Below are positions 8,838-28,327 of a stretch of DNA of 34,132 bases, in pieces. Position numbers and translations under genes: made by a program. The notes below the pieces were generated by a model that saw only the letters and a program-made list of their open reading frames with translations, searched no databases and was not told the DNA's origin. Origin of the DNA: Planctomycetota bacterium (GTDB lineage: Bacteria; Planctomycetota; MHYJ01; WSZJ01; JACPWG01). The stretch spans positions 1 through 34,132 of the forward strand of contig JACPWG010000184.1 in assembly GCA_016197205.1 (NCBI GenBank), in the 5' to 3' direction. The first letter of the stretch is position 1, and each line of letters starts with the position of its first letter.

Positions 8838-9173
8838 ATGTCGAAGACCTTGCACGAAGACGCGGTCGGGAGCGATCCCTCGGGGCTGGGACCCCCAACC
8901 GACGTGGGCGAATTCATGGCGCAGCACGGACTCACGGCCTCTGCCCAAGTGTGCCTCGCGCTCGTCCGCAGCAACTTCACGGATCTCCTCAGCTCTTCGC
9001 TGGCGCTTCGTGAAGATCCGGAGACCGGTGATCGCTGGATTGCCTTGGAGATCACGCTCGGCGGCGCGACCTCCTCTTTCATGGAAGCCTATCTCGCCTA
9101 CACGCGAGAGTTCCTCGTCGCGATACCGCCGGCACTTCGTCCGCTCCTTCGACTGTCCTACAACGCGGCCTGA
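8838..9173 (+). CDS. Hypothetical 111-aa protein, possible partner (antitoxin-like) of the downstream HEPN protein
   Basis: Its stop lies 5 bp before the start of the HEPN gene, and a plausible RBS (ggagtcgagtcATG) is present. It has no nucleotidyltransferase (MNT) motifs. Confidence 0.45.
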   Translation: MSKTLHEDAVGSDPSGLGPPTDVGEFMAQHGLTASAQVCLALVRSNFTDLLSSSLALREDPETGDRWIALEITLGGATSSFMEAYLAYTREFLVAIPPALRPLLRLSYNAA

Positions 9174-9178
9174 GGGCG

Positions 9179-9622
9179 ATGAATCCACGCGACCTCCACC
9201 GGCTCGCCTCCCTTCTCTGCTCGCAGGCCCACGCGGGGCCCGCGGCCTCACGCACGGCGATCAGCCGATGCTACTACGCGGCATTTCATGTCGCCGCCGA
9301 GTTTCTTCGCGGGCGGAAGATGCCTGTACCCCGCAACGCCGGAGGGCATCGCGAAGCGCTTCTCCGCCTCATGAGCCTTCCGGAGCCTGACATCCGACTC
9401 GCGGCCGCCCTGATCGGAGACCTTCAGACGAAGCGGATCGAGGCGGACTACGACATGTCGCATGTCGGCGTGGAGCGGATCGACACGGCAAGGCGATGCG
9501 TCGAGAGCGCCCTCACGGTGATCGGTCTGCTTGACGGGAAGTGTAGATGCGACGAACTTGCCGGAGCGCATGCGCTCATGGATAGGGCGCCACTGTCGCG
9601 CCGACGCACTTCTTCGTCGTGA
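9179..9622 (+). CDS. HEPN-domain protein
   Basis: The motifs AISRCYYAAFHVAAEFL, RNAGGH (Rx4H) and LQTKRIEADYD resemble the HEPN (pfam05168-like) consensus. Confidence 0.65.
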   Translation: MNPRDLHRLASLLCSQAHAGPAASRTAISRCYYAAFHVAAEFLRGRKMPVPRNAGGHREALLRLMSLPEPDIRLAAALIGDLQTKRIEADYDMSHVGVERIDTARRCVESALTVIGLLDGKCRCDELAGAHALMDRAPLSRRRTSSS

Positions 9623-9733: not shown

Positions 9734-11229
9734 GGGTGCATCCCACTTTGGGGGTCAGGTGAATCATGCAGATTTCCGAAGCCGCGGGCTGTCCCACAAC
9801 CGCCCCCATTGCCCGGTCAGGTACAGCGTCCGCAGGCCCATTACATGCTCGGCACCGAGCTCGCCCCAGAACATGCCGGGGCCCTTCATGCGCATGGAGA
9901 ACAGCTGTTTACAGAAACTCTCGATGGCTCCGGATCCGATGCAACGGCCCGCTTTTCGGTTTTGGGCGTAGCGGGTCAAGCCATGATGGTTGTCCAGGTA
10001 CGTAGCGAGCTTGTTCAAGGCCTCAAGCTTTTTTGCCGCGTTCAAACCTCGTGGCTTCATGCGGTCCAGGGCGAGAATCGTGCTGGTGTCCCATCCTCGC
10101 CAGAGCCTGGCCATCATGCGGTCCACCCAGCACGCAGCGGCAGAGGTTTCCTCCCCGTGTAGCGCCTTGGCGGCCTCCCAGACATGCTCCTTCAGGTGAT
10201 AATAGTCGAGAATGTGCACGGCCCATGGGTACTGGTCGGCCCACTGCCAGATCCACTCGGCCCCATCGGCGATGATGATCACCTCCCAGTCGGTCCCCGG
10301 TGCCAAGCGGGTCATCCAGCGATCCAGTACACTCAGCACCTTGGACTTGTCGAGAGGATGGCTGATTCCCCGTTTTTCCCAACCACCCTTCTCGTTTCGC
10401 CACAGGACGAGGGCGGTGCAGGGCTCGCGCCACTCGCCGCCGTTCTGACGCGTGCGGATGCGTCCGCCATCCATCATGACATAGACCTGGCTTCCTTTCG
10501 GAGGAAGACTCTTCGCGGAGTCCGCCGGCGCCTCTGCCATGGCCTCCTTTGCTCGCGGTCCCAGGGCGGCGATGGTGCGCTGCACACGATTGTCGTCCAC
10601 CGTCAGGCCCGACATTTCCTCCACAGCGGCCTGGGCTTTCTCGAAGGACAGGTTGACACCCGCGATGGCGACGGCACTGGCGCAGGCCGCGCTCATGTGA
10701 TTCACGGCCTGAAGTGCCTCCTGAACCGCCCCGAGATGCCGTCCGCACTTCCGGCATACGGCTGTCCACTCTGGCACCCTGATGCTGCCCACGAGCAGTT
10801 GCAAACCGATGACTTTCATACCCTTGCCCTTCAAGGGGCCTTGGCAGAGCTCGCCACTCGGATTCGAGTGTCCTCGATCGCGTAGCGCCTTCCGAAGGTC
10901 CGGATCGGCATGCTCAAGAGCACTAATGGCGAGCGATGCTCCGAGCGACTGTAGCGAGATACGGAAACGCTGCTCTGCTTTGAGGGCAGAGAACTTCGGA
11001 CCGATGCCTCCTAGGAATTCCGTCACAGCGTTCACCAAGTTTCCAGCTTCTGCTTCGATTGCTTGCCGAACGACTGTATCCAGGGTATGCTGGTCCACCG
11101 TGGTATCCTCCTCTGCGCGGCGGGCTGGGCCTGCCGCATGGTTAATTCGGAAGCAGGGAGGATACCACAACTTTATCGGCTGTAAAGATTTCCTACGTTG
11201 AATGCCGGGCCGTTAGGCTGGGATGCACC
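9734..11229 (-). mobile_element. Complete insertion sequence (1496 bp) with 12-bp terminal inverted repeats GGGTGCATCCCA and an 8-bp target-site duplication GGCTTCGG
   Basis: The left end 9734-9745 is gggtgcatccca, and the right end 11218-11229 is tgggatgcaccc, its reverse complement. Identical direct repeats ggcttcgg flank it at 9726-9733 and 11230-11237. A single transposase ORF fills the element. Confidence 0.75.
9764..11170 (-). CDS. DDE transposase (468 aa), possibly ISKra4/ISLre2-like; the family assignment is tentative
   Basis: It lies inside the IR/TSD-bounded element and shows transposase-like conserved segments (VMMDGG, IIADGAEWIW, YYHLKEHVWEAA, CIGSGAIESFCKQ). Confidence 0.7.
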   Translation of the reverse strand: MWYPPCFRINHAAGPARRAEEDTTVDQHTLDTVVRQAIEAEAGNLVNAVTEFLGGIGPKFSALKAEQRFRISLQSLGASLAISALEHADPDLRKALRDRGHSNPSGELCQGPLKGKGMKVIGLQLLVGSIRVPEWTAVCRKCGRHLGAVQEALQAVNHMSAACASAVAIAGVNLSFEKAQAAVEEMSGLTVDDNRVQRTIAALGPRAKEAMAEAPADSAKSLPPKGSQVYVMMDGGRIRTRQNGGEWREPCTALVLWRNEKGGWEKRGISHPLDKSKVLSVLDRWMTRLAPGTDWEVIIIADGAEWIWQWADQYPWAVHILDYYHLKEHVWEAAKALHGEETSAAACWVDRMMARLWRGWDTSTILALDRMKPRGLNAAKKLEALNKLATYLDNHHGLTRYAQNRKAGRCIGSGAIESFCKQLFSMRMKGPGMFWGELGAEHVMGLRTLYLTGQWGRLWDSPRLRKSA

Positions 11230-11677: not shown

Positions 11678-14600
11678 TCAGGGCCTCGGCCCCTGCGGAT
11701 CGCCGGTCTGCGTCGGCGCCTGCCGGATGCGGCGTTCCAGGTCGTGGCCGCCTTCGAGGGCGAGGATGACGAGCTCGGACCCGGCGGCGCCAGCCCAGCG
11801 GCGGACGGAGAGGGAAGGGCGGAAGGCGAGGGGCCACAGAAACTGTGGAAACCACGCGACCGCCTCGCGGGTGTCCGCGCGTGCGAGTGCGAAGCCGACA
11901 AGTGCGCCCGCCGACCGCCATGGGACCTGCCTGTGGCCGTAGGCGACGGAAAGGGCATCCGACGATCCGTCGATGACCTGGAGGCACTCGCCAGTCCCCG
12001 TGTCCCAGACGACGACGGTGTCCCCGGACAGGCCCGCGATGCGGCCACCATCGGGCGAATAGGCGAGGCTCGTGACAGACCGCCCATGCCCGCGGAGGCA
12101 CGCGATCTCCCGGCCCGTCGTCGCTTCCCAGACGCGGACGGTCTTGTCCCAGGACCCGCTCGCGATCCGGACGCCGTCGGGTGAAAACGCGACGCTCCAG
12201 ACAACCTGCTCATGCCCGGGGAGGCACGCGATCTCCCGGCCCGTATCCGCTTCCCAGACGCGTACTGTCCCGTCGTTCGCTCCGCTCGCGATCCGGCCGC
12301 CGTTGGGCGAGAAGGCAATGCTGTTGACTTGGTCGCCATGCCCACGAAGGCAGGCGACCTCCCGGCCCGTCTCCAATTCCCAGACCCGTACCGTGTTGTC
12401 GCACGACCCGCTCGCGATCCGGCCGCCATCGGGTGAGAAGGCGACGCTTTCGACACTGCCCTCATGCCCGCGGAGGCAGGCGATTTCCCGGCCCGTCGCA
12501 GCGTCCCAGATGCGCACGGTCTTCTCTAGCGACCCGCTCGCGATTCGGCCGCTGTCAAGCGAGAATGCGACGCTCGTGACTTCTTTCTCATGTCCGCGGA
12601 GGCAGGCGATCTCCTGGCCCGTCGAAACGTCCCAGATGCGCACCGTCTTCTCCCGCGACCCGCTAGCGACTCGGCCGCCGTCGGGCGAGAAGGTGACGCC
12701 GCAGACCCAATCATTAAAAGTGCGGACGCAGGCTAGCTCCCGGCCCGTCGTCGCGTCCCAGACGCGGACGGTCTTGTCCCAGGACCCGCTCGCGATCCGG
12801 CCGCCGTCGGGTGAGTAGGCTACACTCTCTACACTGCTTTCGTGCCCCCGGAGGCAGGCAACCTCCTCGCCCGTCTCCGCTTCCCAGACACGCACAGTGT
12901 GGTCGTACGACGCGCTCGCGATCCGGCCGCCGTCGGGCGAATAGGCCACACTCGTGAACATGCTCGTATGCCTGTGGAAGGGGATCTCCCTGCCCGTCCT
13001 GACTTCCCTCTCGCGCATGTCCTGGTCGTACGCCCCGCTCCACTTCCAGCCACCGTCGGGCGAGTAGGCGTCGCCTTCCACGAAGTCCTGATGGGGGCGA
13101 ATGCAGGCGACCTGCCGGCCCGTCTCCGCTTCCCAGACGCGTACTGTCCGGTCGCACGACCCGCTCGCGAGCCGGCCGCCGTCGGGTGAGAAGGCAACGC
13201 TTTCGACACTGCTCGCATGACCGCGGAGGCAGGCGATCTCCCTGCCCGTCGCCGCGTCCCAAACGCGTACGGTCTTGTCGCGTGAGGCGCTCGCGATCCG
13301 GCGGCCGTCGGGCGAGAAGGCAACGCTCTTGACGGAGAGTTGATGCCCGCGAAGACATGTGACCTGCCGGCCCGTCTCCGCTTCCCAGACGCGTACTGTC
13401 CGGTCGCACGACCCGCTCGCGAGCCGGCCGCCGTCGGGTGAGAAGGCAACGCTTTCGACACTGCTCTCATGACCGCGGAGGCAGGCGATTTCCCTGCCCG
13501 TCGCCGCGTCCCAGACGCGCAGAGTCTCGTCGTTCGAGCCGCTCGCGATCCGGCCGCCGTCGGGCGAGAAGGCGACACTCGTGACCGAGTACTCGTGCCC
13601 GCTGAGGATCAACTCCAGCGGGGAGTCCACGGCCGTCGCGGGGGGCCGGATCGATCGCAGCCATGGGAAGTCCGGCGTCCGGCGCTCCTTCGCCGCCCGC
13701 CACGCCTCCAGGAGCGCGCTTAATTTCGGGCCCTCCCGCTCCCAGGGCGCACCCCCCGGCCCCCATCCGCCTTCCGGCGGGTCATAGTGCTCGGCGGCCT
13801 CCGCGCAGTCGTGCCACCAGCACGAGTTCCACAGGCACTGGAAGAGCGCTGTCGGATGGAGAGCGACGAACGCCGCGTCCCGCGAGATCGCCTTCCCCAG
13901 GAGCCGCACCCGCTCGCGCCCCGGCCGGTCCGCCTCAAGCACCCGCTTCGCCTCGGTGAAATCCCCTACCAGCTCTAGCGCCCGCCCGGCCGCCGCCTTC
14001 ACCTCCAGGTACACGAGGTCCGTCAGCACCGCCTCCAGATCGTCCTCACGCCCCGCCCGCGCGAGATGCGCGGGCAGATGCGCGATCATGTACGCCGACA
14101 TCCGCTCCGCACCCCGCCCGTGCTCCCTCATTCCCTCCTCGGCCAGCCGCCGCTCTCCATCCGCCGCGTCGACGGCGTACGGGCCCGCTAGGTGCAGACC
14201 CGTACGCCGGTCCTTCGTCGTCAGCCAGTCGCTGACAGACTGGTGGAAGGGCGCGACGGTCTCTGCCTCCTCCTTTGCGGTCGTCCCGGTCGCGGCCCGT
14301 CGGATCGGGAAGAGCGACCCCAACTCGCCGAGCTGTTCCCGCAGCTCGAAATCCGAGAGCCCCGCCGCCGCCGCCGCGATGCCCAGCGGAAGCGGCCCAC
14401 GCTGCGCGCAGATGGCACCCACCAGCGACCGGGTCCCGCGGCCGTACTCCTGCACCTCCGGGAACTGGCGCTGGAAGAACTTCTGGTAGTACCCCGCCAG
14501 CCCGACGGGGAACTCCTCCGGGCGGTCCAGCGAGAGCCGCCCCACGACCAGCTCCTCAAGCACGACCTTGGCGTAGAGGAACACACCCTCGCTTCGTCTC

Positions 14601-16354
14601 ACGACCTCGTCCACGGCCACCCCGCGCGGAGCGAACCCACGCGCGGTCAGCTCGCTCCACAGGTAGTCCCGTATGTCCTGCAGGTTCTCTGCCCGCTCCG
14701 CCTCGAACACGTAGGGCGCCAGCCCGGCCAGCGTCGACATTACCCCCGATTCGGGTCGGCTCGTCACGAGGAGGCGAAGCCAGAGTGGCGTCCTGGGCCA
14801 GCAGTCGCGCACCACCTCCGCCAGCTCGTTCCGACCGTTGCGCGTGCTCTCGTCGAGCCCGTCCAGGATCACCAGCCGTGGCGTATCCGGCGCCGGGAAA
14901 TCCTTCCCCAACGGCTGGACCCACAGGGTGTCGAAGACCGTGTACGCGTTCGCCGCGGCCTGCGCCTCCACGTCCAGGGCCTGCAACCGCCGATCGTACT
15001 CCGGCAGGTGCTGCGCCATCTGGTACGCTAGCGAAAGTAGCGCCTTGCGCGGGTCGGCCTTTTCATCGTGGCCGTGCACGCAGAGGTGATGGGCGGCGAC
15101 CCGGCCGTGGTAGTGCGCCAAGTGGGCGGCGAAGGCGGACTTGCCCACGCCCGGCCCGCCGACGAGCCAGAAGATCCGGCTCGCATCCGTCGGGCCCGCC
15201 ACGGGCGGAGCGCCCGGAGCCGCCTGAGCCACGGGAGCGGCAGCCGCGCTGGTCGCCCCGACCTCGCCGGCCAGCCAGCGATCCACCTCCGCGCGGAGCC
15301 AGTGCCGCCCGGTGAAGGCCGCCACGTGCCGGGCGATGTCCGCGTCGAAATCGAGCGGCCGGAGCGCTCGTTTGAGCCGCGCCTGCCCTCCCTCGAAGTC
15401 CAATTTGTCGCACTCCAGGGCGTCCAGCAGGCGCTTGAAGCGGCTCGCGTACTTCTCTGCCTTCTCCTCCGGAGGCAGGCAATCCCGCAGGTCCAGGTAT
15501 TGGATTCGGCAGATCGATATCGGCGGTCCGTTCGCGAGCCCGGCCACGAGCACGGGGATGATCAGCATGTTGCGCTCCAGGGCCTTCGCGATCTCGTTGA
15601 GGCAGAACCCGTCCGTCGAGGACGGATCACGCGGGTCGCGCCGGCGCACGGAGTGCGGCGTCATCAGAAGGAGCATTTTGTCGCAGCTCCTGAGTCCCTC
15701 CTCGATGTAGGCCGGGAAGTCCTGCCCGAGGCGGAGCCGTTCCACGTCGAACCAGACTTTGTGCCCGCGCCGTTCCAGGTCCCGCTTGATCCGCGACGCG
15801 ACGGGCTCGTGCTCGTCGTGCCCGTAGCTGAGGAAGACGCGGATCGGCCGGTCGGCGGCCGACGGTGAGGCAGCGCCAGACTCGGGTCCAACGGCCGGAC
15901 TCGATGTGCCCATCGCCGCGGTCGCCGGCGTGCCCGCGGTCAGGCTGACGGTCGTAGCCACGGTCGCCCGCGTCGAAGACGCCGCGCCGGGTCCGAGCGC
16001 GTCCTTCGCGCGCAGGATCGTCATCCGGTGGCCCACGGACGCGACGCCGATTTCCTTTAGCAAGTCGTGCGTCAGGTCGCGAAACGGCGCGTCCGCCGTG
16101 TCGCTCAGATGATTTGCTGCGAAGGCCTCGGCGTATTGCGGCAGCCCGAGCTCGGCCAGCCATTCGCGAATGTCCACCCCGGTCTCTCCGATCACACAGT
16201 TCGGGACCGTGTCAGAAGTCCGAGCTCTGCGATACCCCAGAGCAGCCGATGGCCGCAACCAAAGGGACGAGCCACCGAAGACGCCGAAAACACCGAAAGA
16301 CGAACCGCGAATTGCGCCGACTGCGCGAATTTTCTCCTGGGAATTCGTTGCCAA
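11678..16354 (-). CDS. STAND NTPase with SAM, TIR, NACHT and about 14 WD40 repeats (1558 aa as tracked; start uncertain, possibly GTG near 16195)
   Basis: A SAM-like segment (IREWLAELGLPQYAEAFAANHLS...LLKEIGVASVGHRMTILRAKDAL) is followed by a TIR domain (IRVFLSYGHDE...GFCLNEIAKAL, carrying the conserved catalytic-Glu motif). Next comes a NACHT domain with Walker A GGPGVGKS, Walker B LVILDGLDE and sensor LLVTSRP. It ends with many GHxxSVxSVAFSPDGxRIASGSxDxTVRVWDAxTGRE WD40 repeats. Confidence 0.85.
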   Translation of the reverse strand: MATNSQEKIRAVGAIRGSSFGVFGVFGGSSLWLRPSAALGYRRARTSDTVPNCVIGETGVDIREWLAELGLPQYAEAFAANHLSDTADAPFRDLTHDLLKEIGVASVGHRMTILRAKDALGPGAASSTRATVATTVSLTAGTPATAAMGTSSPAVGPESGAASPSAADRPIRVFLSYGHDEHEPVASRIKRDLERRGHKVWFDVERLRLGQDFPAYIEEGLRSCDKMLLLMTPHSVRRRDPRDPSSTDGFCLNEIAKALERNMLIIPVLVAGLANGPPISICRIQYLDLRDCLPPEEKAEKYASRFKRLLDALECDKLDFEGGQARLKRALRPLDFDADIARHVAAFTGRHWLRAEVDRWLAGEVGATSAAAAPVAQAAPGAPPVAGPTDASRIFWLVGGPGVGKSAFAAHLAHYHGRVAAHHLCVHGHDEKADPRKALLSLAYQMAQHLPEYDRRLQALDVEAQAAANAYTVFDTLWVQPLGKDFPAPDTPRLVILDGLDESTRNGRNELAEVVRDCWPRTPLWLRLLVTSRPESGVMSTLAGLAPYVFEAERAENLQDIRDYLWSELTARGFAPRGVAVDEVVRRSEGVFLYAKVVLEELVVGRLSLDRPEEFPVGLAGYYQKFFQRQFPEVQEYGRGTRSLVGAICAQRGPLPLGIAAAAAGLSDFELREQLGELGSLFPIRRAATGTTAKEEAETVAPFHQSVSDWLTTKDRRTGLHLAGPYAVDAADGERRLAEEGMREHGRGAERMSAYMIAHLPAHLARAGREDDLEAVLTDLVYLEVKAAAGRALELVGDFTEAKRVLEADRPGRERVRLLGKAISRDAAFVALHPTALFQCLWNSCWWHDCAEAAEHYDPPEGGWGPGGAPWEREGPKLSALLEAWRAAKERRTPDFPWLRSIRPPATAVDSPLELILSGHEYSVTSVAFSPDGGRIASGSNDETLRVWDAATGREIACLRGHESSVESVAFSPDGGRLASGSCDRTVRVWEAETGRQVTCLRGHQLSVKSVAFSPDGRRIASASRDKTVRVWDAATGREIACLRGHASSVESVAFSPDGGRLASGSCDRTVRVWEAETGRQVACIRPHQDFVEGDAYSPDGGWKWSGAYDQDMREREVRTGREIPFHRHTSMFTSVAYSPDGGRIASASYDHTVRVWEAETGEEVACLRGHESSVESVAYSPDGGRIASGSWDKTVRVWDATTGRELACVRTFNDWVCGVTFSPDGGRVASGSREKTVRIWDVSTGQEIACLRGHEKEVTSVAFSLDSGRIASGSLEKTVRIWDAATGREIACLRGHEGSVESVAFSPDGGRIASGSCDNTVRVWELETGREVACLRGHGDQVNSIAFSPNGGRIASGANDGTVRVWEADTGREIACLPGHEQVVWSVAFSPDGVRIASGSWDKTVRVWEATTGREIACLRGHGRSVTSLAYSPDGGRIAGLSGDTVVVWDTGTGECLQVIDGSSDALSVAYGHRQVPWRSAGALVGFALARADTREAVAWFPQFLWPLAFRPSLSVRRWAGAAGSELVILALEGGHDLERRIRQAPTQTGDPQGPRP

Positions 16355-16461
16355 AAAAACAAGCTTTTCGGCTATTGTGTCACAGTCCTGTGCAATGCAA
16401 GAATCAAGGCGCCGGCTCGCCTCGTCCCCTCGCCCTGGTCAGCCGTGAGCACACCCACGCG

Positions 16462-16932
16462 CTATTCACGCACGCCTGCGATTTTCGCCAGTTCGCCCGT
16501 GTATTCTTGCAGGTCACGCTGCAGGATCTTCAGCTCTTCGCGCAGCCCCTGCGCCCCTTTCCATGCCTGCTCGTGCTCGAACGGACTCACCGCCGGCCCG
16601 CGACCTGCCTCCCAGTAGCCGAGCAACGGATGCCACTTTGCCAGGAACGGCCGCACGCGTCGATTGAGGACCGCCAGGGCGATCCCGCCAACCGACTGCT
16701 TCGAGATCCCGATGTCGGGTCCCGCCTCACGCAGGATCTCGCGCGTGGTCTTGAACAGGCTGTAGAGCGAAGTGAGCGCCTCTCGCAGGAGTCCGTGGTC
16801 GACCGCCAACGGTTCGGTGGAAACGCGCGTGGCCAGCTCCACGTAAAGCGACCAGGCTGCACGGCGCTGCGTCGGGTTCGCCTCCCACTTCGCATCGATA
16901 TCGAGAAAGCCGAGCTTCAAGCTCACGCCCAC
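16462..16932 (-). CDS. Hypothetical 156-aa protein, predicted mostly helical, in an operon between the TIR/SLOG and STAND genes
   Basis: The ORF is on the same strand with 108-bp gaps on either side. No family was recognised. Confidence 0.45.
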   Translation of the reverse strand: MGVSLKLGFLDIDAKWEANPTQRRAAWSLYVELATRVSTEPLAVDHGLLREALTSLYSLFKTTREILREAGPDIGISKQSVGGIALAVLNRRVRPFLAKWHPLLGYWEAGRGPAVSPFEHEQAWKGAQGLREELKILQRDLQEYTGELAKIAGVRE

Positions 16933-17040
16933 GCTTTTCAGTTCCGCGGGGTCATCCTGGGAAATGGCGGTTGTCCTCCCACAGGTCGGTTCCGAGGATA
17001 GAAGCCCGCTGCAACGCCCTGCCTCCGCTTCCCAGGAAAG

Positions 17041-19086
17041 CTATCGCGCCGCGGGCGGAGGGGTGCTTTCCCACACGCGCGACATGCCCAGGAGCAGCAG
17101 CTCCACAATGCGGTCGAGGTCCCGGGTGCGGAACAGTTCGAGGTTCTCGGCCACGGAGAGTCCGTTCGCCCGCGACAGGCCTTCCACGCCTGTTTCTCGC
17201 AGGAAGGCGGTCATGTCCGGGTAGTCCCACCAGGCAACGCCCTGCTGCTCATAGATGCGACGCATCTCCTCCGCATGAGGCGCCTGCTTCTGGTAGTCCC
17301 AGGTGAATTCCTGCCGAGGGCGTCCCTCCAGGAGCTCGACGAGGACGGCGCAGGCCCCGCCGAATGCGCCGCAGACGTACAGGGGGCGGGCCGCCCGCAC
17401 GGTGAGGAGCGCCTCTTCGAGGACGCCGGGGATGCGCCCGCTGTACCACGCTTTCTCCCGGCCGCCATCCGGACGCGCTGTCATCGTCGGGCCCACCTTT
17501 CCGCCGATGACGACGCGCGCGTGCACCTCGGCGACCTGTCGCTCCCGCATCGCCGTCATCCCCCGAGCCCACGCGTACCGGCGCACCGGACTCGTCGCCG
17601 CGAAAAACACCGGTTCCGCAACAAAGGTCCCGGGTTCGAGCGCCTCGACGCCGGGGGGGCGCTGCGTGCGGATGAAGGTGGCCAGATTCTGGAGCTTCGC
17701 GCGCTTTTCCTTGGGCAGCGTGTCATACGGCAACGGCCAGCCGACATAATTCCGAATCCGCTCAACGGGCGGCAGGGTGCTCAGCGACTGATGGGCGCGG
17801 ATAAGATCGCACAGCGCGACCGTGTAGCCTTCGCTACCCAGATGGCCGCCGTACGCGAGGCCGGCGCCCCTGACCAGGAGATGCCGAGAGACCTCGAGCA
17901 ACGCCGAGTCGAGGTGCTCGCGCAGGACGCCGTAGCGCTCGGGGTCGTCGCTTTCTGAAACCGACACCGCGACGGTCCATTGCGAGAGCTTCTTGTCCTT
18001 GCCCGCGCGCTGAAGGGGAGTCTCCACCCGATGTCCGAGCGGCCCGAGCACCTCCAGCTCCTCGTCCCCCAGAGGAGGGTCCGGGTAGAGGACGCTGCTC
18101 TGGGGCGGGAGCCGGACCAGCGAGGCGAGCTCCGGCGGCGAGCTGAAAACGAGATCCTCCGGGCGTTTTTGCCCTGCGAGGACTTTCGAGACGTGCAGAA
18201 AGCGAAGCGTCTCCTTCAGCAGGAGGTCGATGGCGCGTTGCGCACCGGCGTTGCGGTAGGAAAGCACGGGCGCGTTCCCCAGGTACGGGAAGCTGCGCGT
18301 GTCGAGACCGGCGAGGGCATCCACGACCACGAACGGCCGCTGATGCTCCTTTGCCAGGAGCACTTCGCGTCGACACCAGGGGCGCCCGCCGTACCGCGTG
18401 GTTGCCAGCACGAGCAAGGCGGAGTCGCGCACGCCCCGGCTGATCTCCTCTGCGAACTCGGAACCGCCGTCGATCCGGGCGCTATCCACCCATGCCTCGA
18501 CGGGCTGCGTGGCGTTCAGGTGCTCGACCACCGCGTTGAAGACCCGCGGCTTCTTGTCGATGTCGAGCTTTGTGTGGCTGACGAACACCTTGAGCGGGAC
18601 GCGCGGACCTTGTTCGAGCCCCATCAGGAAACGGCACAGCGCGATGACTACGCGACGCTCGGTCCAGGCGGTGCGTTGGCCCCATGGCTGCGCATGAGCT
18701 TTGACAAAGCTGGTTCCCTCCAGGCGACGATCGAGCGGCCATGCGGACTCCGAGAGCTGGATCGGCAGGAACTGGTGCCGACCGTCCCGGCACCGCTCTG
18801 CCAGGTCGCCGACAAACGCGGGCCACGCCTGCCGTCCCGGCGGCACTTCGGCCGGTTCGAGCACCATGTCGCTGTCGGCGAAAACGACGACGAGGCTGTG
18901 TTCCGCCTCGTCAAGATCGTGGCGCGCGGGGGGGAGGCCAGTGCCATCCTCGGGCAGAACCACGGTCGGCACGCGCAGACCCGGCAGCGCGGGATCGTCA
19001 TGCAGCGCACGGTGGATGGCGACGGCGAGCTCCCGCGCGTCGGTCGAGTCAGGGTGAAAGACGAGGTGAACCAGCAGGGGCGTCAC
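17041..19086 (-). CDS. TIR-domain protein with a C-terminal SLOG/LOG-like (STALD-like) domain (681 aa). The start is a GTG overlapping the stop of the upstream MVP gene (GTGA).
   Basis: The central TIR is KVFVSHTKLD...GSEFAEEI...LLVLATTRYGGRPWCRREVLLA, with the catalytic-Glu motif. The N-terminal roughly 130 aa are a possible second, degenerate TIR-like fold. The C-terminus has Rossmann-type Gly-rich motifs LVRGAGLAYGGHLG and VVIGGKVG...LYVCGAFGGACAVLVELLEG, reminiscent of LOG/SLOG domains. Confidence 0.7.
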   Translation of the reverse strand: MTPLLVHLVFHPDSTDARELAVAIHRALHDDPALPGLRVPTVVLPEDGTGLPPARHDLDEAEHSLVVVFADSDMVLEPAEVPPGRQAWPAFVGDLAERCRDGRHQFLPIQLSESAWPLDRRLEGTSFVKAHAQPWGQRTAWTERRVVIALCRFLMGLEQGPRVPLKVFVSHTKLDIDKKPRVFNAVVEHLNATQPVEAWVDSARIDGGSEFAEEISRGVRDSALLVLATTRYGGRPWCRREVLLAKEHQRPFVVVDALAGLDTRSFPYLGNAPVLSYRNAGAQRAIDLLLKETLRFLHVSKVLAGQKRPEDLVFSSPPELASLVRLPPQSSVLYPDPPLGDEELEVLGPLGHRVETPLQRAGKDKKLSQWTVAVSVSESDDPERYGVLREHLDSALLEVSRHLLVRGAGLAYGGHLGSEGYTVALCDLIRAHQSLSTLPPVERIRNYVGWPLPYDTLPKEKRAKLQNLATFIRTQRPPGVEALEPGTFVAEPVFFAATSPVRRYAWARGMTAMRERQVAEVHARVVIGGKVGPTMTARPDGGREKAWYSGRIPGVLEEALLTVRAARPLYVCGAFGGACAVLVELLEGRPRQEFTWDYQKQAPHAEEMRRIYEQQGVAWWDYPDMTAFLRETGVEGLSRANGLSVAENLELFRTRDLDRIVELLLLGMSRVWESTPPPAAR

Positions 19087-22000
19087 GACCGCCCCCTCGG
19101 CGCGGAAGAAGGCCCGCCGGGCGCCGGCGGCGGGGCCGCCGGGCCGGACCCGCTCCCCGCCGGGGTCGCCGGCTTCGGACCGTCCGCGCCGCCGCCGCTC
19201 CCGCTCCCGCCGCCCGCGCCGCCGAACCGCTCGCGCAGCGCCTGCAGCGTCGGCAGCACCTTCGTTCCGCCCAGCACTTCCGAAAGGATCGTGCCGACGT
19301 CCTTCCCCTTGTAGAGCGAGACGAGGTTCATGTTCGACGCGACCTCGCCCAGCATGATCTTGTCGCCGAGCGCGGTCATCGCCTCCACCAGCCCGCGCTG
19401 GATCGCGTTTCGCTCCGCGACGGTCGCCGTCGATTGCGCGTTGATCAAGAGCACCTCCAGGTCCCGCAGCCGCGCCGCGCGCTCGACCTCCGCCGCGGCC
19501 AGCGTCCGCTGCGCCTCGGCCTGCACGCGCGCCTCCTCCGCCGCCCGCTTCAGCTCCGCGGCCTTCGCCTCGTCCTCACGGGCGACCCGGGCCTTCTGCG
19601 CAGCCGACTCCCGCGCATCGGTCAGGTCCTGCCGCTCCCGCTCCACGCCCTCGCCGCCCCGCAGCTCCGCGAGCCGCGCCTCGTGACCCAGCCGCCGCAC
19701 GGCCTCCGCGACCTTCGCCTCCCGCTCCTTCGCCTCCTCCGTCAAGCGCGCCATCTCCTTGTCCAGCTCGGCCCGCAACTTCGTCGACGCGAGCTCCTCT
19801 TGCGCCTTCCGGTCGCCGATCTGCAGGGTCACCCACTCCGTGTGCACGCGCTGCATCAGCTCCGCCACGTCGCGGTTCTCGATGACCGCGGACAGGACCT
19901 CCACCTCCGTCACGACCGAGCCGTTCTCCGCGAACGACCGACCCGGGCGCCGCCCGTCCTTCGGCTCGCCCAGGACGGTGTCCCGCACCAGCGCGGGGAG
20001 CTGCGGCCAGAGCTGCGTCAGCGAAAGCGCACGGCTCCGGCTCCGCACGAGCGACCGCAGGTGCTCGCACATCACCTGGACGTAGTTCTCGTGGTTGAAC
20101 CACTTTTCCCGCTGCTCCGCCAGAAAGGTCACGGAGTACGAGACGCGGATGTTCACCTTCACGAAGTCGAACGTCTCGACCGTAATGACGTCCGAGACGC
20201 GATTGCCGAGCGTGCGCAGGAAGCAGGTTTTGAGCAGGCGGTCGTCGGTCTTCGGCGTCCCCATCGAAAGGGAGATCGAGCAGAGGGTCTCTTCGTACCC
20301 GAGCAGCGTCACGCACGGGCCCTCGACGACGCGCCGCGCGTTCGCGGACGTGACGAGGATCGCCGTGTTGTTCGGCACCGTGATGGAGAGCGCCCACGGG
20401 GTCGTGATCGCAGTCGCGGTCCGCTTGTGCGGCTCGTTCGCCGCGATCCACAGGTTCCAGTCGTCCGCGGGGACGATGCGCGTGATTTGCACCTCCTTGC
20501 GCGGATCGACGAGGTACGACTGCTTCCCGCGAATGAGCCGCACCTCGCCGGTCGTGAGGTCGCGGACGTAAATGCCGCTCTTCTGGTCGATGCCGACCGC
20601 CTCGATGAAGATGCGGGCATGGTCGTTGCCGACGACGGCCTGCCCGGTCTCCGGCGACAGGACCTCGATCTCGTTGAACGGGAAAAAAAAGGTGGAAACG
20701 CCGGTGAGCAAGAGCTCGTCGCCCGGGAAGTAGGCGTCCTTCTCCAGCACGAAGGCGCGGGGAAGCCGCTGGGCCAACTCGGCCCGCGCGATGGGCGAAA
20801 TCACGCGGAGCCAGAGGGCGCGCTGCGGCAGCAGTTCGTACGCGTCGTACACGCGATTGCGCGAGCCGACGCTCATGAACGTGTCGTACGGGCCGGGGAA
20901 GACGCGCGCGGGCCCGACCTTGATCTCGCGCTTGCCGTCGGCGTCGATGAGCACGCAGTACTCCTTCTCGCCGAGAACGACCGCGTTGCGGACGAGCCGG
21001 GCCTGGCCGGCCTGCTTCTCGAGGGCGCGCCGCAACGTGGGCGAGGCGAGCACTTCGGCGAGCGAGGGCGGCGCCGCGGCCGCGGAGGCCTGCGCGGCGA
21101 GATTCGCGCCACCGGCGGCGCTCCCGGCCGGGAAGGCGCCCTGCACCGCCTGGAACATCGCGTTGGGCGCGGCGGCCGCCGACGCGGGGGCGGGCATGCC
21201 GGCCGGGGGACCGCCGGGGGACGGCGGCACCGGGGCCTTGCGATGCCGTGCGCGCGCCGACTGGTCGATGTAGACGTCAGCCGCCTGCTGCGCGCGCCTC
21301 GGGACGCCCTGCGCCTCGGCCTCGCTCTGCGCGCCCCCCTCCTCTGCGACCTGGACCTGCTCCGCGAGGGCGTCGATCGCTCCTTGCGCGACGGCCCGGC
21401 GCTCCGGCGCCTCCTGCTTGAGCTGCGCCAATATCTGACGCGCGGCCGCCGCGCCGAGCGCCGCCCCGGTCCCGTCCACGGACGTGTCGGGCACGATGTC
21501 GACGCCGGTCGGCGGGATGTAGAACTGGGTGTCGAGGCCGCGGATCACGATGAGCTGGCCCCGGTTCAGGTCCACGGGCTTCGGCGGCGCGGGCGAGGCG
21601 CCCGCAGGGCCGCCCTCGGCGAGCCGCTCGGCGGTGGAACGGGTGATCGTCGCGGACCGGGCCGTGACCTCATAATAGGGCGCGGTCGTATCGACCGGGC
21701 CATACACCTCGACGAGGAGGTATTGATTCGAGGCGAGCTTGTGCGCGTCGCGCACCTCGACCCGCTGCCCCGGTCGCAAATAGAAGCAGCACGGGCCGGG
21801 GATCATGGAGCGGGTCCCGTTCCGGAGCGGGCGCGACTCGTTGCGGCCGGGACGGAATTTACCGTTGGGCCCGCCGTCGCTTTCGAGAAGAGGGTTGTAG
21901 AGCACGGCGTACTGGTTGTCCCCCAGCTCGACCATCGACTGGGGCTTGCCCGTGACGTCCTCGCGAAAGCCCCCTTCGCCGTCGTCGACGACGACGCGGT

Positions 22001-22139
22001 CGGCCGCGGTCGGGGAAACCATGGTCGGGCCGACGTGGAGCGTGACTTCCCCCTTGTCGTCGTCCTGGACCCACAGGAACTGGCGATCGGTGACCGGGAT
22101 CTTGCGGCTGGTGCGTTCGTTCATGGTTGTAGCCTCCAC
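19083..22139 (-). CDS. Major vault protein (MVP) homologue (1018 aa)
   Basis: The N-terminus [32 protein letters not shown] matches the MVP start [46 protein letters not shown] matches EGIYVQDVKTGKVRAVIG, and [25 protein letters not shown] matches [25 protein letters not shown] in the shoulder domain. A long coiled-coil ([26 protein letters not shown]...) corresponds to the cap-helix, and the tail is Gly/Pro-rich like the cap-ring. Confidence 0.85.
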   Translation of the reverse strand: [1018 protein letters not shown]

Positions 22140-22281
22140 GTCAATGCGCGAGAGTCAGTGCCCGGACGCGCAGAAGAGTCAAATGCGGGTTGTCGGGGTC
22201 TTCGCAGGCGCTTTTTTGCGAACGCCGCGGGACCGCTCGCTAACGCTCGCGGTTCGGTGGGGCCCGCCCCTTCGACAGGGC

Positions 22282-22761
22282 TCAGTAGCCGCCGGAGGAC
22301 GCGTCGACCTTCGGCGCTGGGTCGACTGCTTCAGCGGCGGGCTGGTAACAGATGAGCGCCCCCGCGACGAGCGCGAGCAGCACGCCGAGCAGGTTGATCG
22401 GTCGCAGCCGCTCCCGGCCCGTCGCGACCATGAGGAGCAGCGTCACGGCAGGGTACAAGGCCGTCAGCGGGATGACGCGGCACGCGTCCGCCCGCTCCAG
22501 CGTGGACATCCACACGACGAACGCCACCCCCGCGGTCAGGGCGCCCATCCCGGCCAGGGCCACGCCGCGCTCCCAGCGGATGGTCACGCCGCTCCGGAGC
22601 AGCCACCCGAGGATGAGCACGTTCACAAGGGTCGTGAAGATGCAGCTCCAGACCACGGCGGGCCGTGCCTGCAGCGTCTGCGCGGCGAGCTTGTTGAAGA
22701 AACCCCAGAAACCCCAAACCACGATCACGAACAGGCACGAGCGGGCCAAGGCCAGGTTCAT
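22282..22761 (-). CDS. Small EamA/DMT-like 4-TM membrane protein. The start is taken at the internal Met MNLALARSCLFVIVVWGFW.
   Basis: Four hydrophobic helices in a roughly 159-aa product. The tracked ORF has an improbable Cys/Pro-rich N-terminal extension. Confidence 0.55.
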   Translation of the reverse strand: MNLALARSCLFVIVVWGFWGFFNKLAAQTLQARPAVVWSCIFTTLVNVLILGWLLRSGVTIRWERGVALAGMGALTAGVAFVVWMSTLERADACRVIPLTALYPAVTLLLMVATGRERLRPINLLGVLLALVAGALICYQPAAEAVDPAPKVDASSGGY

Positions 22762-22957
22762 CGCAGGCTCCTCGCAGGGCGGCACCGTCGCTCGACATGG
22801 AGGGCGGTCGTCCGCGGGTGGGCATTCACCACCGAGACACGGGAGCGACACGGAGAACCTTCGCCCGGCTCGTCCACCTCTCCGTGCATTCTCCGTGACT
22901 CGGTGAGTCCGTGACTCCGTGGTGAAGCGGTCGGGTCTCGAAACGGCTACCTCCGCC

Positions 22958-23173
22958 TCACGCTTCCTTCGTCCAGCCGAGAAGGAGCTCCGCCACTTCT
23001 CTCTGAAACCGGCCCTCGACCTCTTGCACCTCTTCGCGGGAGAGCTTCCCGAGCCGGTGCATCTCCGCGCTCACCGCCGCCGCGCACTCCCGCGGCAGAC
23101 CCGCCATGAGCTTCGGGGCGGAGAGCTGGTCCAGCGTCATGAGCGCAATGGCGACCTTGCGAATTCCCGACAT
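22958..23173 (-). CDS. Small (71-aa) helical protein with weak resemblance to FliG/MgtE N-terminal helical repeats
   Basis: It lies 18 bp downstream of the preceding gene on the same strand. Short ORFs in high-GC DNA are uncertain. Confidence 0.35.
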   Translation of the reverse strand: MSGIRKVAIALMTLDQLSAPKLMAGLPRECAAAVSAEMHRLGKLSREEVQEVEGRFQREVAELLLGWTKEA

Positions 23174-23191
23174 GCTTCCTCCCGCCGGGCG

Positions 23192-26017: not shown

Positions 26018-26018
26018 G

Positions 26019-27593
26019 TCAGCGCTCCCCGGGGGAAAGTCGGGCGGCAAGGACGTGCTTCTGCACCTTGCCGGTCGCCGTGCGGGGCAGGGCGCCCAGT
26101 TCGAACCAGCGACGCGGACACTTGTAGTCGGCCAGGGCCGCGCGGCAGAGCGCCTCCAGCTCGGCGCGCAGAGGGTCGGCGAGCGGGGCGGGCGGCTCGG
26201 CCGGCGGGCGCGCCGAAGAGCGCGGGACCACGACGGCGCCGACCTCTTCCCCCCAGACCGCGTCGGGCACGCCGACCACGGCCGCCTCGGCCACGCCCGC
26301 GTGGCGGTGGAGGACCTCCTCGATCTCGCGGGGGTAGATGTTCTCCCCTCCGCGGATAATCATCTCTTTTTTTCGGCCCGCGATGAAGTAGTAGCCGTCG
26401 GCGTCCACGCGGCCGAGGTCGCCGGTGTGGAGCCGGCCGCCGCGCAGCGTCTCCGCGGTCGCGGCCGGGTTGTTCCAGTAGCCACGCATGACGTTCGGGC
26501 CGCGGACCACGATTTCCCCGACCTCGCCGGTCGGGACCGGGCGGTCCTGGTCGTCGACGATCGCGAGTTCCTGGCCGGGCAGCGGGAGGCCGATCGAGCC
26601 GATCTTGCGCGGTCCGTCGAGGGGGTTGACCGAGGAGGCGCAGGTCCCTTCGGAGAGCCCGTACCCTTCGAGCAGGAAGGCCCGGAAGCGTTTCTCGAAG
26701 GCGGCGAAGACCTCGACGGGCATCGGCGCCGCGCCGCAGACGCAGAGGCGGAGGCGCGAGAGGTCGCGCCGTGCGTCTTCCGGGAGGGCGTTGAGGATGG
26801 CATAGACCGTGGGGACCGCGCTGAACGCCGTGGCGCGGTAGCGGTCGAGCGCGTCGAGGAATTCGGCCGGCGAGAAGCGCTCCAGGAGGACGAGGCTGGC
26901 GCCGGCCACGAGAGGCGCGAGCGTGGTGACCACCTGGGCATTGACGTGGAAGAGGGGGAGGATGCAGAGGAACCGGTCCTCGGGGGTCATGCGCACCCAG
27001 GCGGCGATCGCCGAGGCGTCGTAGAGATACGAGGCGTGGGTGAGCATGACGCCTTTGGGGCGGCCGGTCGTCCCTGAGGTGTAGATGATGGCGGCGAGGT
27101 CGTCCGGCGCGGGTCCGGCGGCCTTGCAGGCGGCGCGGCCGGCCGGCGACGGCTCCGGGAAGCGCAGCGTCGGGCCGGCGTCGCGGCCGTCGGCGCCCTC
27201 GACCGCGGCGGCATAGAGCGTGCGGAGGGCGGGGCAGCGGGGCCGGACCGCGGCGGCGACCGGGAGGCGCGGGCCATCCGCGACGAGGGCGACGCAGCCG
27301 GCATCGGCGAGGATGAACTCGACCTCCGGCGCTTTGAGCGCGGGGTTGACGGGGACGGCGATGGCGCCGGCGCGCTGGGCGCCGAAGAACGCCGCCAGGA
27401 ACTCCGGACAGTTGCCCGTGAGGAGCGCGACGCGGTCGCCGTGCTGGACGCCTGCGGCCTCGAGCGCGGCGGCGAAGGTCCCCGCCCATTCGTCGAGTTG
27501 GCGGAAGGTGAAACGCAGGTCTCGAAAAAAAAGGAAGTCCTGCGCGGGCCGTTCGAGCGCGCGGAGGGCGAGCAGGCGGGGCAGGGTTTCCAT
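26019..27593 (-). CDS. AMP-binding acyl-CoA synthetase (fatty-acid--CoA ligase family)
   Basis: The AMP-binding signature IIYTSGTTGRPKGVMLTH is present, along with YGLSEG, TGDLGRVDADGYYFIAGRKKEMIIRGGENIYPREIE and the C-terminal lysine motif PRTATGKVQK. The tracked ORF (to 28403) has an Arg/Pro-rich artefactual N-terminal extension; the real start is METLPRLL. Confidence 0.85.
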   Translation of the reverse strand: METLPRLLALRALERPAQDFLFFRDLRFTFRQLDEWAGTFAAALEAAGVQHGDRVALLTGNCPEFLAAFFGAQRAGAIAVPVNPALKAPEVEFILADAGCVALVADGPRLPVAAAVRPRCPALRTLYAAAVEGADGRDAGPTLRFPEPSPAGRAACKAAGPAPDDLAAIIYTSGTTGRPKGVMLTHASYLYDASAIAAWVRMTPEDRFLCILPLFHVNAQVVTTLAPLVAGASLVLLERFSPAEFLDALDRYRATAFSAVPTVYAILNALPEDARRDLSRLRLCVCGAAPMPVEVFAAFEKRFRAFLLEGYGLSEGTCASSVNPLDGPRKIGSIGLPLPGQELAIVDDQDRPVPTGEVGEIVVRGPNVMRGYWNNPAATAETLRGGRLHTGDLGRVDADGYYFIAGRKKEMIIRGGENIYPREIEEVLHRHAGVAEAAVVGVPDAVWGEEVGAVVVPRSSARPPAEPPAPLADPLRAELEALCRAALADYKCPRRWFELGALPRTATGKVQKHVLAARLSPGER

Positions 27594-27689
27594 CGGGGCT
27601 CCGGCGAGGCGGAGGAAGGGAGAGGGTACCCCGGCTATTATAGGGGGCGGGAGCGGTGCGTCAACGGGATTCGGACCGGCGCGAGGCCC

Positions 27690-27719
27690 TTGACAGGGCC
27701 TGAAGCGCTTGCCTATAAT
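27690..27719 (+). promoter_or_regulatory. Near-consensus sigma-70 promoter, TTGACA-N18-TATAAT
   Basis: TTGACA lies at 27690-27695 and TATAAT at 27714-27719, about 45 bp upstream of the ATG at 27764. A GGGGAG Shine-Dalgarno sequence precedes the start. Confidence 0.5.
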
Positions 27720-27763
27720 CCCGCTTCGGCGAAGGGGCTCGTGTCGGATCGGGGAGTCCCGCG

Positions 27764-28327
27764 ATGATGATGGACGAGGAAAACGGGCCGCTGAAGGCCG
27801 GCATTCTGCTTCTGGCGCTGCTCGTGCTGGTCGTGCTTCTCGGCTTGGTCTACAAGTCGGTGGCGGGCGGCACGCAGATCGATCCGGAGAAGGTCCAGAA
27901 GTGGAAACTGCGCGGCGCACGCGCTCCGGCAGAGGGTGCGTCCAGCCAGCCCGGCGGCGGGGCCGTCGGAGGGGACACGGTCCCGGGGACCGAAGCCGGA
28001 GCCGGCGCCGGCTCCGGCGGCGCGGAGCCGCAGGCGCCTGCGACCGGTTCGTCCTCCACGGAGCCGGCGGCCGCGGAAGGGGACACGTCCGCGGCGGCCG
28101 CCCAGGAACAGAACATGAAGCGGTGGATGGACGCACTCCGTCGCGCCTCGAAGCCCCGCCCCGCCGAACCCGCCGGAGGCGAGCCGCCGAAGGCCCCCCC
28201 GGCGAGCGACAACCCGCCCAAGGAGCAGCCTCCCATGGATGCGCCGGCCCCCGGTCCGGACGCCTCCGGCGGCGGCTCCGCTTCCTCCACGCCCGAACAG
28301 GTCCCGGCCGGCTCGGACTCGCAGTAG
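27764..28327 (+). CDS. Membrane-anchored Pro/Ala/Gly-rich low-complexity protein (187 aa)
   Basis: An N-terminal TM helix ILLLALLVLVVLLGLVY is followed by PAPG-rich low-complexity sequence. It lies downstream of the consensus promoter. Confidence 0.5.
   Translation: MMMDEENGPLKAGILLLALLVLVVLLGLVYKSVAGGTQIDPEKVQKWKLRGARAPAEGASSQPGGGAVGGDTVPGTEAGAGAGSGGAEPQAPATGSSSTEPAAAEGDTSAAAAQEQNMKRWMDALRRASKPRPAEPAGGEPPKAPPASDNPPKEQPPMDAPAPGPDASGGGSASSTPEQVPAGSDSQ

Follow-up and report, generated by a model that had tools for sequence, protein, structure and literature searches.

A SAM domain at the head of a predicted TIR-NACHT-WD40 sensor protein encoded on a metagenomic contig

The window analysed here is a complete contig of 34,132 bp from an NCBI metagenome-assembled genome (MAG) labelled 'Planctomycetes bacterium' (locus-tag prefix HYZ53). 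Its minus strand encodes a 1499-residue protein in which a SAM domain and a TIR domain precede a NACHT-clade NTPase of the STAND class and a long array of WD40 repeats. We propose that this protein is probably an autonomous, single-chain NLR-like STAND sensor of the TIR-NACHT-WD40/TPR family, in which ligand binding by the WD40 repeats would drive oligomerisation of the NACHT and, in turn, cleavage of NAD+ by the TIR; it most likely serves in defence against phages or in some other conflict. Every domain, motif and fold is intact. The novelty lies in the SAM head, which is undescribed but recurrent; its combination with WD40 repeats is rare, and the chassis that carries it is known and common. 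An earlier note on this DNA, made from the letters alone, had proposed the same order of domains, and the features on which the proposal can now be judged are listed below. Residue numbers are those of the open reading frame (ORF) counted from its TTG, and pLDDT is the predicted local distance difference test score of an AlphaFold2 model.

11678–16177, minus strand: coding sequence of the SAM-TIR-NACHT-WD40 protein, 1499 residues, GTG start, TGA stop
16184–16189, minus strand: Shine-Dalgarno-like GGAGAG, with a 6-nt spacer to the GTG at 16177
16007–16174, minus strand: single SAM domain (Pfam SAM_1/SAM_2), ORF residues 61–116
15851–16006, minus strand: disordered SAM-TIR linker rich in Ala, Pro, Ser and Thr, ORF residues 117–168, pLDDT 34–51
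15350–15850, minus strand: TIR domain, Pfam envelope residues 173–294, the fold reaching about residue 335
15593–15607, minus strand: FCLNE motif, the putative catalytic Glu at 15593–15595 (ORF E254, or E195 when numbered from the GTG)
13640–15349, minus strand: whole STAND module, comprising nucleotide-binding domain, helical domain 1, winged-helix domain and helical domain 2 (NBD-HD1-WHD-HD2), from the AlphaFold2 model and Foldseek
14756–15184, minus strand: NACHT-clade P-loop NTPase core of NPHP3_N type, ORF residues 391–533
15137–15160, minus strand: Walker A GGPGVGKS, residue 399, intact
14849–14875, minus strand: Walker B LVILDGLDE of NACHT type, residue 494, intact
13928–14110, minus strand: Apaf-1-like helical domain (APAF1_C, E=8e-5), ORF residues 749–809
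11915–13633, minus strand: WD40 sensor region, 13 units of 41–42 residues and a partial 14th
11681–11914, minus strand: C-terminal tail of 78 residues with no recognisable domain

The minus-strand ORF runs uninterrupted from 11678 to 16354 and counts 1558 residues from the TTG, and the gene's frame is open over 4.5 kb of DNA with 68–70% GC. The TTG at 16354 simply happens to come first after the upstream stop; the earlier note had doubted it as a start, and we now prefer a GTG. That note had named GTG codons near 16195 and 16168 as candidates. Checking the codons showed that the first is indeed in frame, that 16168 is a CGC, and that the real second candidate is the GTG at 16177. The latter is most likely the true start, since it is preceded by GGAGAG, agrees with the public database gene call (P0241, 1499 residues and 100% identical, which begins at ORF residue 60 with 'MDIREWLAELGL') and places the SAM domain where homologues have it, with an onset at residue 2–14 in every SAM-bearing homologue. 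Upstream of the gene neither a promoter nor a minus-strand terminator was predicted, and terminal repeats that might mark the edges of a mobile element around it were looked for with no convincing result.

Because a Pfam scan of the whole protein was swamped by WD40 matches, we scanned the protein in separate pieces. The N-terminal segment matched SAM_1 (E=9e-12, 45.6 bits against a cut-off of 23) and SAM_2 (E=5e-11, 42.9 bits against 20.5), and its SAM matches in the PDB included ARAP3, ANKS1B, Caskin and the first SAM of SARM1. The protein has one SAM and no tandem pair. The linker behind it, about 50 residues long, varies in length and cannot be aligned over 18 homologues. The following segment matched TIR_2 (E=1.2e-21, 77.8 bits against a cut-off of 28). 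In an AlphaFold2 model of ORF residues 54–340, built from 40 sequences, the SAM forms a helical bundle with pLDDT above 90 and the TIR an alpha/beta fold with pLDDT of about 90. When this model was compared with the PDB by Foldseek, full-length human SARM1 (7anw_A) ranked first with 255 aligned columns across both domains, followed by Caenorhabditis elegans TIR-1, SPARTA TIRs, AbTir and plant TIRs.

The earlier note had pointed to the Glu of GFCLNEI as the catalytic residue of the TIR. FCLNE aligns with WVHKE of TIR-1, the best sequence match in the PDB, and of SARM1, in which the Glu is E642, the residue replaced by Ala in PDB entry 7cm7. The aromatic residue four positions ahead of the Glu (the pattern [WYF]xxxE) is present, and E254 is invariant in both family alignments, of 40 and of 18 members. 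Profile, fold and catalytic Glu thus indicate a TIR of the NADase type, for which cleavage of NAD+ is predicted. Taken together, both folds that the note had expected at the N-terminus were recovered by profile, model and fold search, and the Glu that it singled out is conserved.

The segment behind the TIR, read by the note as a NACHT, matched NPHP3_N (E=1.2e-19, 71.5 bits against a cut-off of 24.8), the NACHT-clade NTPase of the TEP1/NWD/NPHP3/HET-E type. The occurrence of both Walker motifs in it is far beyond chance. The NACHT forms of these motifs, GxxxxGK[ST] for Walker A and hhhhDGhDE for Walker B, are said to have been defined by Koonin and Aravind in 2000. A sequence search of the PDB with the NTPase region gave no match. 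Modelling of ORF residues 336–905 yielded a structure with pLDDT 90.5 and a predicted template modelling score of 0.87, and the top Foldseek matches of this NTPase-helical model were ADP-bound Apaf-1 structures (3sfz and 1z6t), over about 500 columns. MalT, Avs3, the plant TIR-type NLR (TNL) WRR4A, NLRP3, Dark and NOD2 were matched as well. As this confident model matches Apaf-1, MalT, Avs3, a TNL, NLRP3 and NOD2, the region can be taken as a genuine STAND module, organised as NBD-HD1-WHD-HD2.

The C-terminal part of the protein gave a WD40 profile match of E=1e-139 together with Beta-prop_TEP1 matches, and at the DNA level the array is underlain by a 126-nt tandem repeat at 12035–13580. The regular units and the partial one, which the note had put at about 14 repeats, are enough for two seven-bladed propellers. 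The units are highly alike, with units 2 and 4 being 98% identical in DNA, and their variation is concentrated right after 'GH' and around the SxDxT positions. Such positions lie on the top, ligand-binding face of a WD40 propeller, and the variability would fit the pattern of diversifying recognition surfaces. The last 100 residues of the protein gave no Pfam match at E≤1.

To place the protein among its relatives, we used its SAM-TIR-NACHT part as a query, and 291 of the scored candidates proved to be homologues at E≤1e-5. All of them have a TIR and an NPHP3_N NTPase followed by WD40 or TPR repeats, and they come from many bacterial phyla and some archaeal MAGs. Ahead of the TIR they carry nothing (the TIR beginning at residue 1–5), a CPxC zinc ribbon, a SAM or, in a few, longer unknown regions; the zinc ribbon, of about 35 residues, is the commonest N-terminal add-on among the WD40 relatives. 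An exhaustive HMMER search with the SAM-TIR part returned 7,515 representatives at E≤1e-3. With both searches pooled, an N-terminal SAM was found in 24 proteins, at least 20 of them with TPR sensors, and only two of the 24, the protein studied here and P0257, combine it with WD40 repeats. Six further matches of the SAM-TIR search (P0248, P0255, P0283, P0286, P0292 and P0335) are proteins of 1400–2200 residues with five to seven separate TIR-like stretches.

The modules of the protein differ in their affinities. Median identity to the WD40 relatives that lack a SAM is 61% in the TIR, 52% in the NACHT and 42% in the helical domain, and to the SAM-TPR clade 54%, 45% and 34%, respectively. By these identities the protein is a mosaic, its chassis lying nearer to WD40 relatives without a SAM than to the clade that joins SAM and TPR, and therefore the SAM behaves as a swappable N-terminal cassette. 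Full-text literature searches found no paper on a natural prokaryotic SAM-TIR; the term 'SAM-TIR' was used there for SARM1 constructs and engineered chimeras only. We conclude that the SAM add-on is recurrent but undescribed, on a TIR-NACHT-WD40/TPR chassis that occurs widely and has its place in the existing catalogue of bacterial NACHT (bNACHT) proteins.

The earlier note had called the N-terminus SARM1-like. In layout and fold the comparison stands: a profile of 18 prokaryotic SAM-TIR modules ranked TIR-1 (E=3.6e-21, in one collinear alignment from its first SAM to its TIR) and SARM1 (about 7e-17) as the top two PDB matches, with the same SAM-to-TIR order, a Glu at the position of E642 and the aromatic residue four positions earlier. 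They rank at the top because two domain scores add together. Taken singly, the SAM part scores about equally against the SAMs of Caskin, ANKS1 and SHANK, and the TIR part reaches 41 bits with 7uxr, 39 with TIR-1, 33 with AbTir and 25–30 with SARM1. The architectures also differ, in that SARM1 has an N-terminal ARM autoinhibitory domain, two SAMs in an octameric ring and a C-terminal TIR, whereas the protein studied here has one SAM at its extreme N-terminus, the disordered linker, and NACHT and WD40 modules after the TIR. It begins at the SAM, and no ARM domain was matched by Pfam. Since the per-domain scores are no higher than those for Caskin SAMs or bacterial TIRs, they do not point to specific common descent, and the likeness to SARM1 appears to be architectural only. 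A survey of 2020 found no bacterial SARM1 homologues (PMC7075850). As a secondary reading, animal SARM1 may have drawn its SAM-TIR core from this prokaryotic cassette.

We also inspected the genomic contexts of seven other family members, whose sensors and neighbours were as follows.

P0257, SAM-WD40: reverse transcriptase and DUF4062-TPR STAND genes
P0009, WD40: DUF4062-WD40 and DUF4062-NACHT genes, a GAP1/DO-GTPase/GASH system and a type I restriction-modification system
P0015, WD40: DUF4062-WD40 and DUF4062-NACHT genes and a ThsB-like TIR gene
P0005, WD40: SNF2 helicase and AAA genes
P0097 and P0118, SAM-TPR: a common upstream block of unknown genes
P0114, SAM-TPR: zinc-ribbon-TIR, AAA and Clp protease genes

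None of these seven contexts revealed a conserved partner gene. Defence-island-like settings without a constant partner fit an autonomous single-gene sensor. Two of the contexts deserve description in their own right. The loci of P0097 and P0118 (L080–L082), which come from different samples, share four upstream genes for proteins of 200, 238, 477 and about 1084 residues; the 477-residue protein weakly resembles a DNA-ligase C-terminal domain, and the largest one has faint leucine-rich repeat (LRR) matches. This block may be a conserved operon of the sub-clade or simply reflect shared ancestry. At the loci of P0009 (L078) and P0015 (L083/L084), the TIR-NPHP3_N-WD40 genes are clustered with several DUF4062 (TeTIR/Swarozyc-type) STAND genes, forming arrays of paralogous NLR-like genes with two TIR-class head types side by side.

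The effector-switch-sensor layout of anti-phage STAND proteins, to which the note had assigned the gene, is borne out by the motifs, by the model that matches Apaf-1, MalT, Avs3 and NLRs, and by the defence-island contexts of homologues. Kibby et al. (bioRxiv 10.1101/2022.07.19.500537) showed that phage defence is provided by bacterial NACHT proteins bearing TIR and other effectors; the architectures named in the text of that paper include TIR, zinc ribbon, beta-propeller and TPR, and SAM is not among them. The protein studied here shares with them an N-terminal TIR effector, a central NACHT, a C-terminal beta-propeller or TPR sensor and a location in defence islands; it differs in that, as far as could be established, no tested bNACHT belongs to the NPHP3_N-type TIR-WD40 family. 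Plant TNLs such as RPP1, ROQ1 and WRR4A, all three of which were among the fold matches, have the same TIR-STAND-repeat order and a TIR activated by induced proximity in an oligomer. They differ in having NB-ARC in place of NACHT, LRR in place of WD40 and no SAM, and SAM-TIR fusions of plant TIRs are engineered only.

From the precedents of Apaf-1, Avs, bNACHT, plant TNLs and SARM1, we propose the following mechanism. Before activation, the NACHT NTPase would sit in a closed state imposed by the helical domains and the WD40 double propeller. A ligand derived from an invader or from stress would bind the variable top face of the WD40 blades, leading to nucleotide exchange and oligomerisation, and the oligomer would gather the N-terminal TIRs so that composite active sites could form around Glu254. 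The active TIRs would then cleave NAD+, resulting either in its depletion (abortive infection) or in a nucleotide signal. The tethered SAM would add homotypic clustering, raising the local TIR concentration or linking activated oligomers. Most plausibly, the SAM would thus be an optional clustering module, comparable to the ring that the SAMs of SARM1 form and to SAM-TIR fusions made by engineering, though arranged differently.

Several observations weigh against this model of an autonomous sensor, and some of them concern the genes next to it, which are listed here.

9764–11170, minus strand: ISKra4-family transposase directly downstream of the STAND gene (NCBIfam transpos_ISKra4, 1.5e-61, above cut-off)
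16178–16461: 284-nt spacer between the 156-residue protein gene and the STAND gene
16462–16932, minus strand: protein of 156 residues with no known domain
17041–19086, minus strand: TIR-SLOG protein (SLOG cluster 2) of 681 residues (LD_cluster2 2e-59, TIR_2 6e-9)
19083–22124, minus strand: homologue of the major vault protein (MVP), 1013 residues as called (MVP shoulder 1e-17, Vault_3/4 repeats)

The generic Pfam NACHT model reached 23.9 bits on the NTPase, just under its cut-off of 26.7. At E≤1 no PADLOC model for Avs, bNACHT-type or other STAND proteins matched the NTPase region, the PADLOC matches of the protein being confined to the level of the TIR; since no model matches the NTPase, we rejected membership of an Avs/PADLOC system. 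The lone SAM, being flexibly tethered, might just as well recruit a partner or act in regulation, and the sequence alone fits depletion of NAD+ and production of a signal alike. The TIR-SLOG neighbour may hint that the protein does not act alone in this locus. That adjacency itself comes from the MAG assembly alone, because an independent Logan assembly of SRR12113391, 100% identical to window positions 16343–28442, stops at 16343 inside the 284-nt spacer. On its other side the gene adjoins the transposase, and within it WD40 unit 5 (13004–13129) is degenerate.

The last two points also feed the view that we are looking at a pseudogene in decay or at an assembly error in which the repeat array has collapsed, and that the gene has no function. 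Assembly of 126-nt tandem repeats is difficult, and the exact 1499-residue product was found on no other contig. Unit 5, however, is degenerate in frame: its DNA has truly diverged, the other frames are nonsense, and we therefore rejected a frameshift or assembly artefact. In addition, the long open frame lies in GC-rich DNA with catalytic and nucleotide-binding motifs intact, and 13 units and a partial one fit the blade count of two propellers. Decay or mis-assembly is accordingly very improbable.

We next consider the genes upstream. On one strand, the order is MVP homologue, TIR-SLOG gene, 156-residue protein gene, spacer and STAND gene, the start of the TIR-SLOG gene overlapping the stop of the MVP gene by 4 nt. 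The TIR of the TIR-SLOG protein carries a WCRRE (WxxxE) motif, and its family is uniform (about 675 residues, 54–66% identical) and widely distributed. The 156-residue protein had no match in Pfam, PADLOC or NCBIfam. Its homologues adjoin TIR-SLOG in at least 7 of 21 metagenomic loci, and in one locus (L062) the domain is fused to a patatin phospholipase domain. We rejected it as a partner of the STAND gene, as it travels with TIR-SLOG. The two together form a recurrent cassette inside multi-TIR islands (L057–L077 and L085), with patatin among the members, and these islands look like an undescribed Thoeris-like configuration. Flanks of 4 kb or more were available for 13 of the metagenomic TIR-SLOG loci, and 11 of these had at least one extra TIR gene; the same TIR model found none in a control of 838 kb of MVP loci. 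The neighbours encode TIR-WD40, TIR-TPR, TIR-nSTAND1-FGE, TIR with nSTAND1-WD40, TIR-endonuclease and TIR-YEATS proteins, some of them matching ThsB_TIR. In a cultured Corallococcus, a 1380-residue TIR-STAND-HEAT protein is encoded 136 nt after TIR-SLOG and shares only the TIR (26%) with the protein studied here. Thus, in four independent loci the slot next to TIR-SLOG is filled by analogous, non-orthologous TIR-STAND-repeat proteins.

These arrangements raise the main rival reading, a possibility that we regard as real though unlikely, that the STAND protein is the sensor and signal generator of a Thoeris-like system, whose TIR would make an ADP-ribose-derived nucleotide read by the SLOG of a TIR-SLOG NADase effector, with the 156-residue protein as an accessory. 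In Thoeris, a signal made by variable TIR sensors is read by a SLOG domain, and SLOG is the sensor of cyclic ADP-ribose isomers in the Thoeris protein ThsA. As in Thoeris, a gene for a TIR-bearing sensor lies next to a SLOG-bearing gene, here three consecutive genes on one strand, and the extra TIR genes and the analogous proteins of the other TIR-SLOG loci point the same way. A 'type III Thoeris' of several TIR genes with a SLOG effector has been reported, as cited in 10.64898/2025.12.03.692087 and 10.64898/2026.01.22.701046. A large systematic Thoeris survey of 2025 removed STAND-fused TIRs beforehand, and therefore the TIR-STAND plus SLOG configuration was not covered by it.

The differences from Thoeris are considerable, however. 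Type I consists of ThsA (SIR2-SLOG) and ThsB (TIR), whereas here SLOG cluster 2 has a TIR as its fusion partner in place of SIR2 or NucS, and the TIR partner is a 1499-residue STAND protein. ThsA and ThcA models gave no match, ThcB4 reached 32 bits against a cut-off of 220, and the PADLOC ThsB matches were weak. From the side of the STAND family the linkage is not conserved, with a SLOG gene in none of the seven other contexts; conversely, none of the 21 TIR-SLOG loci holds a homologue of this NACHT. The spacer of 284 nt, in which the independent assembly ends, separates the STAND gene from the cassette, and the latter, having a WxxxE of its own, may be self-sufficient. Defence genes also cluster for reasons besides co-function. 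More tentatively, and with considerable doubt, the NLR-like STAND protein might be the pathogen sensor of a diffusible-signal pathway to TIR-SLOG, which would be a prokaryotic counterpart of the plant route from TNL to EDS1 and a Thoeris class excluded by the design of the surveys.

The MVP homologue has more than 100 cluster representatives at 58–70% identity, mostly from Polyangia (Polyangium, Byssovorax and Minicystis). Its position invites comparison with human TEP1, a protein of TeTIR-NACHT(NPHP3_N type)-helical-WD40 layout, for which NADase activity within the vault was shown in 2026 (10.64898/2026.05.01.722283; 10.64898/2026.09.21.753143). TEP1, NWD1, NWD2 and NPHP3, along with their homologues in prokaryotes, share with the protein studied here the NPHP3_N-type NACHT, the Apaf-1-like helical domain, WD40 or TPR sensors and a TIR-class NADase just upstream of the NTPase, and homologues of the studied gene adjoin DUF4062-NACHT genes. 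One might thus picture a bacterial TEP1 analogue working with the adjacent MVP, a prokaryotic vault with an internal TIR NADase, an idea also fed by the overlap of the MVP and TIR-SLOG genes on the same strand and by the Beta-prop_TEP1 matches. The protein, however, has a canonical TIR_2 and no TROVE/VWA region; a TeTIR/DUF4062 identity of its TIR was rejected, as no DUF4062 match was obtained at E≤1. Among 55 MVP loci from other genomes, none had a TIR, NACHT, SLOG or 156-residue protein homologue within 10 kb, and the WD40 matches seen near MVP in 3 of the 55 were weak and non-adjacent. The MVP neighbourhood is not conserved between genomes, no other gene of the window is syntenic, and none of the seven STAND family contexts holds an MVP gene. 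With no co-occurrence in other MVP loci, we rejected a vault/TEP1 operon as largely refuted, leaving it barely conceivable, and conclude that the adjacency of the STAND and MVP genes is a coincidence. Bacterial MVPs themselves are little studied, and they merit attention since ADP-ribose was found in 2026 to be bound in the shoulder of the vault.

Elsewhere in the window, a weak HEPN-domain ORF (E=0.006; 9179–9622, plus strand) is preceded by an ORF of 111 residues (8838–9173, plus strand) near the ISKra4 transposase, possibly as a toxin-antitoxin-like pair. For an ORF of 952 residues at 23192–26050 on the minus strand, Pfam gave no match and NCBIfam an MshE-type cyclic-di-GMP-binding motif (E=8e-15, above cut-off). 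A PADLOC scan of eight other ORFs of the window gave no match.

The relatives of the contig's MVP marker, lying mostly in Polyangia, bear on a further reading, in which the protein would not be antiviral and would switch on cell death in development or in self/non-self discrimination, in a bacterium with complex social behaviour, like the incompatibility proteins HET-E/NWD of fungi. The NACHT is of the NPHP3_N/HET-E/TEP1 type, and fungal HET-E/NWD proteins and Apaf-1 have a comparable NACHT or NB-ARC, helical and double WD40 propeller layout. Internally conserved repeats with few variable positions are a hallmark of the fungal HET-E/NWD WD40 arrays, and the units described above follow this habit. 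Kibby et al. place the NACHTs of TEP1 and HET-E in clades of bacterial origin (10.1101/2022.07.19.500537) and, with Kaur et al. (PMC7159879), describe such proteins as expanded in multicellular bacteria. HET-E and Apaf-1 differ in carrying HET or CARD effectors, whereas the studied protein carries SAM-TIR. Moreover, it has homologues among classical anti-phage systems, its family spans many phyla including archaeal MAGs, and no partner allele system lies nearby. We therefore consider a cell-death switch of this kind improbable, and a defence sensor remains our preferred reading.

Should none of the following points hold, the gene would simply join a large family that is already catalogued. TIR-NACHT-repeat proteins are bacterial relatives of animal and plant NLRs, and the add-ons that they tolerate show how TIR enzymes switch on. 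The natural prokaryotic SAM-TIR is the sole non-animal counterpart of the SARM1 head that we found, described or undescribed. It mirrors the engineered fusions that activate plant TIRs and offers a simple model for how SAM clustering may set the threshold of a TIR NADase. Finally, TIR-STAND sensors lie beside TIR-SLOG both here and at four analogous loci, which makes it directly testable whether STAND-fused TIRs generate signals, beyond depleting NAD+.

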